In this document: piece after piece, positions 5,375-9,271 of the stretch
How positions within the stretch are numbered: position 1 is the stretch's first letter
Layout of the letters: every line of letters starts with the position of its first letter
IMG/VR virus record: IMGVR_UViG_3300022752_000033
Coordinates: 1 to 17,710 of that record
Origin: a virus
Taxonomy: Duplodnaviria > Heunggongvirae > Uroviricota > Caudoviricetes
Direction: 5' to 3' (one strand)
DNA: 17,710 nt
Made by a program: the position numbers and the translations under genes
Notes under the pieces: model-generated
What the model was told of the DNA's origin: nothing
The model's input: only the letters and a program-made list of their open reading frames with translations
Databases searched by the model: none

Positions 5375-6199
5375 TTAAAATTTACGCTTTGGCGCGTTAT
5401 CATTAAACATTAAATCCGGAACATCACTATCATTTGCTGGAGGCATAGACGCATAATTTTTTGTTTGTGTGTCATCTACAGGTGCATCAGCATCTGTAAC
5501 ACCTGGTCTAGCATTATATTTAAGATTTCCTCCTGAATTATATCTATTTTTATATTTGTCCCAAGCAGCCTTTGTTTTTGACCCAAAATTACCATATCCT
5601 TTACCTTTGGTTTTGTTTAATTTAACTCCCGGTTTTCCTAACCAACCATCTATGGTTGAATCTAACCAATCTTGGAATTTTTTAACACCTTCAGCATCTT
5701 TTAAAGCACTTGGTATTGTATAAACAGTAACATTTGGTAATGTTTGAGTTGCCGGCAAATTAGAAACTTCTTTACCATTAATTAAGATAGTGTTTGGTTT
5801 AGTACCACAACTCCATTTTCCATACTCTTGTCCGTAACTATATAATGTTCCGTCAGAACCAAACATATATTGTTTTAAACTTCCTGTACCAATTTTCATT
5901 TCTACACCTGTTTTGGTAGGACCTTGTATATTTGTCCCTGTCGCCTTTTTTTGAGTTTGTAAATTTTTAACACACGGAAACGCCATAAAAGGGTCTGCAG
6001 GTGTTCCACCTTGTTTTGGTAATATTTTACCATCAGAACCTACTTTTAATGTCTTTGCATACTCATCTGTAACCGGACCCCATCCCGCAGCAGACGCCTC
6101 TTTTTGTTTTGTGGTTAATTGTTCAGATATTACTTGTCCCTTCTTATATCCAAAAAGGTCTTTCATTCTATTTACTTCATTTATAAACTGTTTTGACAT
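5375..6199 (-). CDS. Probable virion protein with a peptidoglycan-binding-like C-terminal region
   Basis: N-terminal 'FINEVNRMKDLFGYKKGQVISEQ' leader; 'GVKKFQDWLD...GYGNFGSKTKAAW' resembles the PG_binding_1 pattern (V..LQ..L...DG.FG..T..A); TATTTATT upstream at 6213-6220. Confidence 0.7.
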   Translation of the reverse strand: MSKQFINEVNRMKDLFGYKKGQVISEQLTTKQKEASAAGWGPVTDEYAKTLKVGSDGKILPKQGGTPADPFMAFPCVKNLQTQKKATGTNIQGPTKTGVEMKIGTGSLKQYMFGSDGTLYSYGQEYGKWSCGTKPNTILINGKEVSNLPATQTLPNVTVYTIPSALKDAEGVKKFQDWLDSTIDGWLGKPGVKLNKTKGKGYGNFGSKTKAAWDKYKNRYNSGGNLKYNARPGVTDADAPVDDTQTKNYASMPPANDSDVPDLMFNDNAPKRKF

Positions 6200-6232
6200 A
6201 ATATATTTTTATAATAAATAGTGCAAGGGCAT

Positions 6233-6258
6233 AAAAAAACCCATCACGAAGATAGGTA
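6233..6258 (-). terminator. Intrinsic terminator downstream of the large ncRNA
   Basis: Minus strand ACCTATC-TTCGT-GATGGGT-TTTTTT. Confidence 0.75.
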
Positions 6259-6269
6259 AATTAAAAAAA

Positions 6270-7135
6270 GGTTGAGAATACACCGTTTTGTGACAGTCTT
6301 TAGAAGGATTATCTTATTCCCTTCATTTCCACTTCCTTTTGAGAAGTAACCATCAATGACGATTGATAAAGTCAATCACACTTTGAGTCGAAAAATACTC
6401 TCTTACTACTCATCACTCTTCAAGGTTGCCACCCTGATTAATCCTTGCGGGACTAGAAGACTTTCATAAAAATCACATTAGTCTTGGGAACCTTTGTGGC
6501 CGTGAACAACTCACGACTATGTAGTCATCTTTCATTTCCGACTGACGGACACTTTTCCTTGATTGATTAATTTGATTAACTTATTCAAAGTTTGATTGGT
6601 TTGTGGATTTGAAAGGTAGCGGTCCGTCACCAGCTCAGTTATCTTTTGAACAACCGAATACTAAACTACCTTATGAAGTATCCCTACCTCCATATTTTAA
6701 GTCAACTTCAGTAACACGCTCTTGGTAGAGACGTATCAGGGTTGATAACAGCACCACCTGTACTCCAACTTACCTTTCGGTTTTAAATCGACTTTAATAT
6801 TGAGTCACGCAATAGTAGAGTCGGATAACCCTATGTTTTGCATTAACTCTACGAGTTATTCTTATTGGTGTTCCCACCTCAACCTGACGACCCACATCGC
6901 CAAGCCATCTAACCAACTCCCCTACAGTGTTACCCTCGAGTACTAAGGTTAAACGATATCTCGCTTGTATACTCAAGCACTCTTGCGAATGCCGCAACCC
7001 ACCTAAACCAAGGTGAATCACTTTAAGCCACTTTCGTGGTTTATTTAATGACCATATACGGCCAATTATCTTTTATCAGTAAACGTCTCAGAATCAACCC
7101 GAAGGTCTCATCATCAATATCCTGAATGGATAATA
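6270..7135 (-). ncRNA. Large ornate structured RNA, GOLLD-like (~870 nt; ends approximate)
   Basis: No credible ORF, clearly GC-richer than the flanks, dense hairpins with GNRA/UUCG loops (CCAC-GAAA-GTGG, CATTC-GCAA-GAGTG, ACC-GAAA-GGT, TCC-GCAA-GGA, GACC-TTCG-GGTT), long-range pair 6544-6550/6622-6628; size, phage context and tRNA adjacency fit GOLLD; family call from recall, no covariance model run. Confidence 0.7.
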
Positions 7136-7140
7136 TTTTT

Positions 7141-7153
7141 ATTCAAAGAACTA
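7141..7153 (-). promoter_or_regulatory. boxA-like antitermination element before the large ncRNA
   Basis: Minus strand TAGTTCTTTGAAT, similar to rRNA-leader boxA (GYTCTTT). Confidence 0.5.
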
Positions 7154-7171
7154 TCTAATTAAAGAAGATGC

Positions 7172-7276
7172 TGGAATCTTTACAACCACCCATTCCCCCC
7201 ACTTGTAATCACCGGTTTTATTTTCAATTTTAAAAATTACTTCCGGTAGGGAAAGAATAATGGAATCTTTACAACC
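7172..7276. repeat. 16-nt direct repeat pair TGGAATCTTTACAACC
   Basis: Identical copies at 7172-7187 and 7261-7276, enclosed by a 9-bp inverted repeat (7162-7170 / 7278-7286). Confidence 0.85.
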
Positions 7277-7297
7277 CCATCTTCTTCATTTGTTTCA

Positions 7298-7329
7298 CAA
7301 AGTTAAGAAGAACTTTTCAATTAGTCAAA
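7298..7329 (-). promoter_or_regulatory. Bacteroidota -33/-7 promoter (proximal to the ncRNA)
   Basis: TTTG-N20-TAACTTTG; part of a ~60-nt block repeated at ~7376-7435 and ~7622-7680. Confidence 0.85.
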
Positions 7330-7383
7330 TCTTTTTTGAAACTTTTTTTTAAGAACTTCAGGACTTTCATCCCGTTTGTTTCA

Positions 7384-7415
7384 CAAAGTTAAGAAGAAGT
7401 TTTCATTCTGTCAAA
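7384..7415 (-). promoter_or_regulatory. Bacteroidota -33/-7 promoter (duplicate)
   Basis: TTTG-N20-TAACTTTG, nearly identical to 7298-7329. Confidence 0.85.
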
Positions 7416-7436
7416 TCTTTTTTGAAACTTTTTTTG

Positions 7437-7508
7437 TAGCGGGAGTTGGATTCGAACCAACGACATCGTGGTTATGAGCCACGCGAGATACCACTTCTCT
7501 ATCCCACA
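7437..7508 (-). tRNA. tRNA-Met(CAT), initiator-like; CCA not encoded
   Basis: TGTGGGA TA GAGA AGTGGTA TCTC G CGTGG CTCATAA CCACG ATGTC GTTGG TTCGAAT CCAAC TCCCGCT A; complete cloverleaf, 1:72 mismatch, A11:U24. Confidence 0.95.
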
Positions 7509-7515
7509 ATATAAT

Positions 7516-7529
7516 AATTTAAAGAACTT
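7516..7529 (-). promoter_or_regulatory. boxA-like element before tRNA-Met
   Basis: Minus strand AAGTTCTTTAAATT between the promoter and the tRNA 5' end. Confidence 0.5.
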
Positions 7530-7544
7530 TAAAAATAAGTCCCA

Positions 7545-7575
7545 CAAATATAAGTGACTTTTTCAAATTACCAAA
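7545..7575 (-). promoter_or_regulatory. Bacteroidota -33/-7 promoter for tRNA-Met
   Basis: TTTG-N19-TATATTTG. Confidence 0.8.
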
Positions 7576-7630
7576 CTGTGGGACTTCTTTTGAGATTGAC
7601 CTCGGGGGTGGTCTTTCTCGGTTTGTTTCA

Positions 7631-7662
7631 CAAATTTAAAACAATTTTCTCAAACAATCAAA
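7631..7662 (-). promoter_or_regulatory. Bacteroidota -33/-7 promoter (distal)
   Basis: TTTG-N20-TAAATTTG followed by TGAAACAAAC, as in the other copies. Confidence 0.75.
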
Positions 7663-7738
7663 ACTTTTGTGAAACTTTTTCTGGGGTACTCACCCTTTCG
7701 GGTATGGATATATAAATATATCATATATTAACAAAAAG

Positions 7739-8164
7739 TCAATTTTTTTCAAAATATTTTTTAATAATCTTAAAAAGTTCTCCACCACACATCTCAGAAT
7801 CTATCTCATCTAACCTAAAATAAGACGCATCTGTATGCTCCTCTCCATCCTTTGCATTCTCTAAATCAGGATTTATTTCATTTTCAACCTCCAAACCAAA
7901 AACATACATAATCCCTTTCATTTTCTTTCCATCCCTAGTATATCTTGGAATCGAATCAATATATTTAAGTGGGGCATCATCAATTGGTATATCGGTTTCT
8001 TCAAAAAACTCCCTCTTTGCTGATTCCATAGGTTCTTCACCTTCCTCCATTCTACCACAAGGAATACTCCACATACCGGGAAATGAACCATGATTATTTC
8101 TTTTACATAAAAGTACTTTATCATTACATTTTACGAGCACTCCGGCGTATCTTTTTTTAAACAT
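7739..8164 (-). CDS. NUDIX hydrolase
   Basis: Nudix box GRMEEGEEPMESAKREFFEETDI; upstream 'KVLLCKRN...GMWSIPCG' segment. Confidence 0.93.
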   Translation of the reverse strand: MFKKRYAGVLVKCNDKVLLCKRNNHGSFPGMWSIPCGRMEEGEEPMESAKREFFEETDIPIDDAPLKYIDSIPRYTRDGKKMKGIMYVFGLEVENEINPDLENAKDGEEHTDASYFRLDEIDSEMCGGELFKIIKKYFEKN

Positions 8165-8899: not shown

Positions 8900-9271
8900 T
8901 TAGTATTTTAATGTTAATCTGTATTTTAATTGATTAATGTCTCCCAACATTTCATCTCTAATGTTTAACAAATCAGTATCATATCTTTTATCTAATTTGT
9001 CCGTCATCTCAACCAAAAATTCTGTAATACCATCCAAAAAGTTTTGAACGCTTAAATTTTTAATGTCTTGGAACATAATTGAAAACTCAGGTTCAAATTC
9101 AACTCTACCTTGTTTTCCCATCATTGTTTCAACAAACTTATCAATATTATCCCCTAAAGAATCATATATTTCACCATATGATTTATGTTTAGCATCTCCG
9201 AATGTTTGCCAATGTAAAAACTTAAACTGAGTTTGTATTTGAATAAGTTTTAATGTTATTTCTTCTTTCAT
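8900..9271 (-). CDS. DUF5856 / Dps-ferritin-like four-helix protein
   Basis: LHWQT.G.AKH...GEIYD.L...IDKFVE...GK and LLNIRDEML..INQLKYRLTL match the Dps-like H-W...H...D/E pattern. Confidence 0.8.
   Translation of the reverse strand: MKEEITLKLIQIQTQFKFLHWQTFGDAKHKSYGEIYDSLGDNIDKFVETMMGKQGRVEFEPEFSIMFQDIKNLSVQNFLDGITEFLVEMTDKLDKRYDTDLLNIRDEMLGDINQLKYRLTLKY

Follow-up and report, generated by a model that had tools for sequence, protein, structure and literature searches.

The gene-free stretch of this viral DNA encodes a full-length member of GOLLD, an already described family of giant phage RNAs. We consider it very likely that positions 6269–7064 on the minus strand, in a large uncultured phage, are a functional gene for a GOLLD RNA of the same structural type as env-38. 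The window, meaning the whole stretch of 17,710 nucleotides that was analyzed, is the first 17.7 kb of a 102,417-base IMG/VR virus record with a CheckV completeness of 35%, and this record holds a single GOLLD copy.

Identity, strand, and extent of the RNA

An Infernal search of the whole window against Rfam matched GOLLD (RF02032) at 6269–6673 on the minus strand with 326.1 bits (E 3.3e-93), against a curated cut-off of 150 bits for the family. All 416 model positions (1–416/416) were aligned and the match was untruncated. GOLLD and one tRNA were the two matches in total above curated Rfam cut-offs in the window. A permissive scan of 5900–7800 returned no Rfam match at gathering score or E ≤ 1 to ROOL, group I/II introns, or rRNA, and no ribozyme family, hammerhead included, at E ≤ 1. 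A sequence-only reading of this DNA had proposed a GOLLD member and named an Infernal search against Rfam as the way to check it; the match, together with motifs that the 5' part shares with env-38, bears the proposal out.

Because RF02032 covers only the conserved 3' part of GOLLD, we analyzed the 5' half separately. Its limit was set by comparing its motifs with those of env-38, whose sequence is given in the supplementary material of PMC12286853. The first env-38 residue corresponds, by motif only, to approximately window position 7064, and the core therefore spans 6269–7064. At ~796 nt its length is within the range of its clade (786–845 nt). The sequence-only reading had placed the RNA at 6270–7135 without naming a strand. 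The RNA is indeed there, but its conserved core is 6269–7064 on the minus strand and its conserved leader continues to ~7293; since the RNA is on the minus strand, what had been called the 5' end is the 3' end of the RNA. The core and its parts are as follows.

6269–7064, minus strand: GOLLD RNA core, ~796 nt, from the equivalent of residue 1 of the env-38 construct through the end of the Rfam model
6674–7064, minus strand: 5' domain of the env-38 type, from shared motifs and covarying helices
6612–6673, minus strand: bulged hairpin that opens the Rfam model (positions 1–61), from the Rfam alignment and covariation
6622–6628, minus strand: 5' strand of the closing helix, GACGGAC, in the internal bulge of hairpin 6673–6612
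6552–6611, minus strand: variable AU-rich linker, 60 nt and 73% A+U, 48–82 nt in relatives
6544–6550, minus strand: 3' strand of the closing helix, GUCCGUC, from covariation
6269–6543, minus strand: universally conserved 3' domain, from the Rfam match and covariation

Several general properties that had been read from the letters alone also stood. The longest frame inside the core was 75 aa with a GTG start (7021–6794, on the RNA strand), and its region had a median of 6 stops across 68 homologs, with the frame open in 1/68; we rejected it as a gene because of these stops, in agreement with the earlier statement that there was no credible ORF. GC content was elevated as described (0.400 in 6270–7135 vs 0.317 in the whole window), and the reported GNRA-capped hairpins correspond to seven GNRA tetraloops in 6269–7064, each closed by at least three pairs. 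The minimum free energy of the core was −238.5 kcal/mol (z = −5.09 vs 20 shuffles).

Homologs and covariation

A single relative turned up in the INPHARED phage collection: LR745206.1, an uncultured phage of 634,780 bp in which the gene order is tRNA-Met, GOLLD, tRNA-Pro (L002, record positions 417443–424287). Two stretches of 16–17 nt in the 5' half were identical between the window and LR745206.1 RNAs, and these 5'-domain motifs occurred in >200 IMG/VR contigs, each of them in >100. Among the IMG/VR loci that were fetched, nhmmer found 139 full-length homologs, and a near-identical GOLLD copy was present in another contig (L011, 809 bits). Also at the LR745206.1 locus was a tRNA-like gene whose “anticodon” was called as 2 nt long, and the 5' domain of its GOLLD had ~42 nt of extra insert relative to the window RNA.

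We folded an alignment of the window sequence and 68 non-redundant IMG/VR homologs (69 sequences) with RNAalifold. This gave 39 consensus helices, nearly all 90–100% canonical and mostly 96–100%, and every one of them was intact in the window sequence. Several compensatory pairs were present in most helices, equally in both halves of the RNA. The sequence-only reading had named a lack of covarying homologs as grounds for giving up the GOLLD assignment; covarying helices were present across the 68 homologs.

The 5' domain contained 22 of the covarying helices. It had the motifs GGCCG..GGUC, CGAAAG, GAGGGUAACAC, AAUAAGAAUAACUC, GUACAGGUGGUGC, UACCAAG, and GGUAGGGAUAC in common with env-38 and in the same order, and by these motifs and helices the architecture of the 5' half is that of env-38. 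In the bulged hairpin, helices 6673–6665/6620–6612, 6664–6661/6633–6630, and 6657–6649/6643–6635 were 92–100% canonical with 2–7 compensatory pairs each. Helices of the 3' domain (6543–6270) were 89–100% canonical with 2–6 compensatory pairs each over the 69 sequences, and the long-range helix of 6543–6534 with 6395–6386, which Rfam writes as a pseudoknot, was present.

Linker and long-range pairings

Of the two long-range pairings that had been proposed for this DNA, one was upheld and the other was not. The helix of 6628–6622 with 6550–6544 was canonical in 68–69/69 sequences at each of its seven positions, with compensatory changes in 5/7 pairs (pair types e.g. GC/AU/GU/CG/UA), while sliding one strand by 1–3 columns reduced pairing to 18–47%. 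The helix joins the bulge of hairpin 6673–6612 to the sequence just 3' of the linker and thus closes the linker into a loop. It is very probably a helix already drawn in the published env-38 structure. The AT-rich linker noted earlier (~6551–6620) is real and lies at 6552–6611, where it is unpaired in the Rfam consensus; ARAGORN found no tRNA inside it. In the literature this linker is named J13/15, and in env-38 it is disordered and inside the cage (PMC12286853).

For the second proposal, an end-to-end pairing of GGTTGA and TCAACC, both sequences are present but the pairing was unsupported and we rejected it. In the pairing of GGUUGA (7099–7094) with UCAACC (6275–6270), no position was more than 64% canonical, most were <50%, and none covaried. 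The 3' ACC belongs to a local covarying hairpin instead (6284–6282 with 6272–6270; pair types GC, CG, AU, and UA), and GGUUGA forms the 3' side of a separate covarying hairpin, 7117–7086.

Predicted cage contacts

The env-38 GOLLD is a closed hollow cage of 14 copies with ten bridges between copies, determined by cryo-EM (PDB 9MEE; Kretsch et al. 2025, PMC12286853). One of these bridges is supported by covariation in the clade studied here. The linker end AAGGAAAAG (6560–6552) covaried with the loop at 6489–6483 (UCCCAAG in the window), and over the 69 sequences the pair took the forms GG:CC (window), GC:GC, GA:UC, and CG:CG. The corresponding bridge of env-38 is B7, in which the linker end contacts loop L20 through GA:UC (G546 and A547 with U617 and C618) and thereby joins neighboring copies (PMC12286853).

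Kissing loops matching L21a and L21b of env-38 were found at 6449–6444 (CGCAAG) and 6430–6427 (GGCA). These palindromic loops were widely kept among the 69 sequences, the first as CGCAAG in 58 and UCGAA in 8, the second as GGCA in 54. A GC/CG switch has been reported for bridges B8 and B9 of env-38, and the first loop of the clade switches likewise; neighboring bases of one self-complementary loop, it has been argued, cannot pair within a single chain (PMC12286853). The GAAA loop of the first hairpin, at the position of the B1 donor, was conserved. At the place of bridge B4, the loop pair GGAUA/UAUCC could form 5 bp in the window, and the loops there (GGGA, AUCC) were conserved in the clade without covariation, with a mean longest complementary run of 3.62 vs 3.69 for swapped partners. 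The window RNA and most of the clade have a short GAAA hairpin (6783–6770) where env-38 has a longer branched insert. Such differences are reported in a 2026 review to alter the copy number, which is 10 to 12 in Streptococcus agalactiae vs 14 for env-38; the S. agalactiae GOLLD forms a 10-mer as its major species, with 8- and 12-mers (PMC12990946). By analogy with env-38, the window RNA likely forms a cage, and 14 copies per cage would be the best guess; because of the differences between the two RNAs, the copy number is not certain.

Promoters, tRNA-Met, and terminator

The RNA is flanked on the same strand by a promoter and leader region and by a terminator, with these features:

7509–7682, minus strand: tRNA leader, with promoters at 7662–7631 and 7575–7545, a hairpin, and the boxA-like GTTCTTTAA at 7527–7519
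7436–7508, minus strand: tRNA-Met (CAU), found by ARAGORN and matched by the Rfam tRNA model at 7437–7508 with 61 bits
7350–7435, minus strand: second promoter block region, with the block at 7435–7375, a short hairpin CGGGAUGAAAGUCCUG, and a degenerate box AGUUCUUA, and no RNA gene behind it
7289–7349, minus strand: promoter block P3, nearest GOLLD, with TTTGAC-N20-TAACTTTG at 7329–7298, flanked by GTTTCA/TGAAAC
7152–7293, minus strand: predicted transcribed leader, its start near 7293 placed by the promoter position
7143–7151, minus strand: boxA-like GTTCTTTGA, followed by ATAAAAATATT up to 7132
7065–7131, minus strand: clade-specific 5' extension between box and core, read directly from the sequence
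6239–6257, minus strand: intrinsic terminator, a 7-bp stem with U7, 12 nt past the GOLLD 3' end

Work on Bacteroides promoters established the Bacteroidota pattern TTTG-N18-21-TAnnTTTG. This pattern occurred 10 times in the window vs 1.16 ± 1.11 expected, and 10 occurrences were reached in 0/200 shuffles. Four of the copies fall within 7662–7298 (minus strand), and three of these are in a repeated 61-nt block (7289–7349, 7375–7435, and 7622–7682, all minus strand) whose extended form was found nowhere else in the 102 kb. Each promoter is followed by a hairpin and then a box. Among the 101 distinct GOLLD homologs with enough upstream sequence, 62 had an exact match to the promoter pattern upstream. 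Each 61-nt block is also flanked by an inverted repeat, GTTTCA(C)...(G)TGAAAC, with its halves ~45 nt apart, which looks like an operator. At the place of 7350–7435, loci L181, L153, L023, L164, L088, L196, L113, and L013 contained a conserved element of ~130 nt, which may be an undescribed small RNA that the window phage has lost.

GOLLD had been expected to lie near tRNA genes, and the tRNA-Met shares the strand of GOLLD and precedes its core by 372 nt. A tRNA-Met was also upstream of GOLLD in 48/101 homologs. The window tRNA has an initiator-like U1 × U72 mismatch atop its acceptor stem, and its anticodon stem has 2/3 of the G-C pairs typical of bacterial initiators. At the other end, the 3' end of GOLLD is followed by a run of seven U. 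Duplexes of the 45 nt preceding the core with the 45 nt following it gave no signal for an rRNA-like processing stem (mean duplex energy −11.45 vs −11.09 ± 0.32 for mismatched flanks).

Box and leader

The leaders contain a box of the form GTTCTTTRA at two sites, GTTCTTTAA just before the tRNA and GTTCTTTGA before GOLLD. We fetched 120 Bacteroidota loci by a 16S probe sequence and scored 84 16S copies. The exact 9-mer was present in the 400-nt leader window of 34/84 copies, where ~2.5 were expected from a background rate of 0.03 per 400 nt, and it was located ~105 nt 5' of the 16S start with the same ..ATTG.. tail. The likeness of the box to host rRNA leaders is thus real. In the GOLLD homologs, the box was found ≤195 nt upstream of the core in 99/101. 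Across the whole 102-kb contig the 9-mer occurred 9 times vs ~4 expected by a rough base-composition estimate, which is only ~2x, and its meaning therefore rests on position and not on count.

BoxA and Nus-factor antitermination have been studied at the E. coli rrn and lambda nut sites. Since the box is common to Bacteroidota 16S leaders and to nearly all GOLLD genes of the clade, the GOLLD leader looks like an rRNA-style antitermination leader, judged by sequence likeness and position. We had also considered GTTCTTTGAA..ATATT as an RNase processing signal, and dropped this for the boxA reading because the same 9-mer is in Bacteroidota 16S leaders. Literature searches found no paper in the searchable library linking GOLLD to an rRNA-like boxA leader, and those on boxA in Bacteroidetes and on the box string itself returned nothing useful.

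Within the leader, a 10-bp stem of GAAGAAGAUG and CAUCUUCUUU closes a domain of ~120 nt with a predicted fold of −37.9 kcal/mol, and relatives keep a shorter form. The domain also includes two exact copies of GGUUGUAAAGAUUCCA (7261–7276 and 7172–7187, minus strand), each able to fold into a small hairpin whose loop is UUGUAAAGAUU; this loop motif was seen in the leaders of relatives as well, e.g. as GGGG-UUGUAAAGAUU-CCCC in L045.

5' extension

Between box and core, the window RNA has an extension that begins with a small 4-bp hairpin (AUCC/GGAU, 7131–7119) and continues with the hairpin 7117–7086 (minus strand), whose paired strands are UUGAUGAUGA-GACC and GGUU-GAUUCUGAGA. The second hairpin has two tandem G.A/A.G motifs, each beside a U.U pair, and fits the C-box/D-box pattern UGAUGA/CUGA without a bulge. 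Its motif was found in 31 fetched loci as 18 variants, with the middle pair as G-C, U-A, A-U, or G.U, and the 102-kb contig has a single copy. Other relatives have the box directly against the core, and the extension is therefore a clade-specific add-on. A hammerhead in the extension was rejected: there was no Rfam match, and UGAUGA is present but with GAUU and not the required GAAA.

Host and genomic surroundings

The carrier is most likely a large uncultured phage infecting Bacteroidota. The promoter statistics and the leader box in common with Bacteroidota 16S leaders point to this host group and agree with the sequence-only reading, which had called the DNA a Bacteroidota-type phage. A search of the accessible literature library found no paper that combines GOLLD with “Bacteroidetes” and “phage”. 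Immediately upstream of the RNA island is a NUDIX hydrolase gene (7739–8164, minus strand), and further on a Dps-like gene (8900–9271, minus strand) annotated as “starvation-inducible regulator” in PHROGs; most other ORFs of the window had no match to a PHROG of known function. A second GC-rich stretch without a long ORF (2100–2560, GC 0.39–0.45) had no Rfam match.

Proposed function and alternatives

We propose that transcription would start near 7293, a start predicted from the Bacteroidota-type promoters, and pass the hairpin and a box apparently taken over from the rRNA leaders of the host, through which the Nus antitermination factors of the host would be recruited. The long untranslated RNA could in this way be produced in large amounts, evade Rho, and fold during synthesis, and transcription would end at the predicted terminator (6257–6239). 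The RNA copies would then self-assemble into a closed hollow cage, fourteen copies being the best guess, with the linker facing inward. During lytic growth the cage may act on something linked to translation, such as tRNAs, ribosomes, or small cargo, which is the least supported step of the model. The part of this model that concerns expression we put forward tentatively: GOLLD of this clade may be made in the manner of rRNA, the box of the host 16S leader recruiting the Nus complex for high output and co-transcriptional folding, and the tandem-G.A hairpin could serve as a protein-binding or 5'-end-defining handle.

The RNA could also be a genuine GOLLD that acts as a single copy or as an RNA–protein particle, bound for example to the ribosome or to a phage protein, in which case the active form in this clade would be something other than the cage observed in vitro. 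Ribosome pull-downs with GOLLD are cited in PMC12286853. The lack of the longer env-38 insert at 6783–6770, the absence of covariation in the B4-like loop pair, and the extra 5' hairpin, whose tandem G.A pairs could hold a protein, would all suit such a particle. We nevertheless consider it unlikely, because the linker-end contact covaries in four forms and is an inter-copy contact in env-38, and because the self-complementary GC/CG loops are kept, whose neighboring bases, as argued in PMC12286853, cannot pair inside one chain.

A decaying, non-functional remnant is very improbable. In its favor, the contig covers only 35% of the phage genome, and the neighboring promoter block has lost its RNA gene. 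The GOLLD copy itself, however, aligns to the full Rfam model without truncation, has every consensus helix intact with no copy-specific helix-breaking changes found, and is of normal length for the clade; promoters, box, and terminator are all present, and L011 holds a near-identical copy. The chance that the stretch is another kind of sequence (a group I/II intron, an rRNA fragment, ROOL, or a protein gene) is negligible, as only GOLLD and the tRNA reached Rfam cut-offs even with permissive filters, and the 75-aa GTG-start frame on the RNA strand, the one feature in its favor, is interrupted in 67 of the 68 homologs.

Comparison with known systems

GOLLD RNAs are among the largest non-ribosomal RNAs of bacteria and phages and form cages larger than the ribosome. 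The window copy adds a member to this known family and is not a new kind of RNA. With it, GOLLD of the env-38 type is placed in a clade of >100 contigs from freshwater jumbo phages, for which promoters and box indicate Bacteroidota hosts, and it adds covariation of a cage-bridging contact in that clade. The rRNA-leader-like box, nearly always present before the gene, speaks for an RNA that is stable and made abundantly, and it offers a concrete handle on expression.

The arrangement upstream of GOLLD is similar to that of rRNA operon leaders in having tandem strong promoters, a leader hairpin, and then a box before a long untranslated stable RNA, and the GTTCTTTRA box with its ..ATTG.. tail is as in Bacteroidota 16S leaders. 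It differs in that the window leaders serve a phage RNA and a phage tRNA, and in that we found no sign of an rRNA-like stem between the flanks.

ROOL, which forms an octameric cage (PMC12286853), is likewise a large phage-borne cage RNA near tRNA genes, but it is unrelated to the window RNA in sequence and fold. The S. agalactiae GOLLD, which also forms cages (PMC12286853, PMC12990946), belongs to the same family and has the same conserved 3' domain. It lacks helices P9, P11a-c, and P21b and forms smaller assemblies (PMC12990946). The window RNA retains the second kissing hairpin, with its GGCA loop, and has a 5' domain of the env-38 type.

The likeness to env-38 is the most extensive. Both RNAs are built of two domains in the same arrangement. 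The window RNA has the 5'-domain motifs of env-38, a 3' domain that matches in full, an AU-rich internal linker closed by a 7-bp helix (strands GAUAGAC/GUCUAUC in env-38), and the bridge loops GAAA, GGGAU-type/AUCC, CGCAAG, and GGCA. Like the window GOLLD, env-38 lies just downstream of a tRNA-Met (PMC12286853). The window RNA is 796 nt vs 833 nt for env-38 and has a short GAAA hairpin in place of the longer branched insert. Its linker-end bridge is GG:CC vs GA:UC in env-38, its B4-like pairing is GGAUA/UAUCC vs GGGAU/AUCCC, and its extension at 7065–7131 is absent from the env-38 construct.
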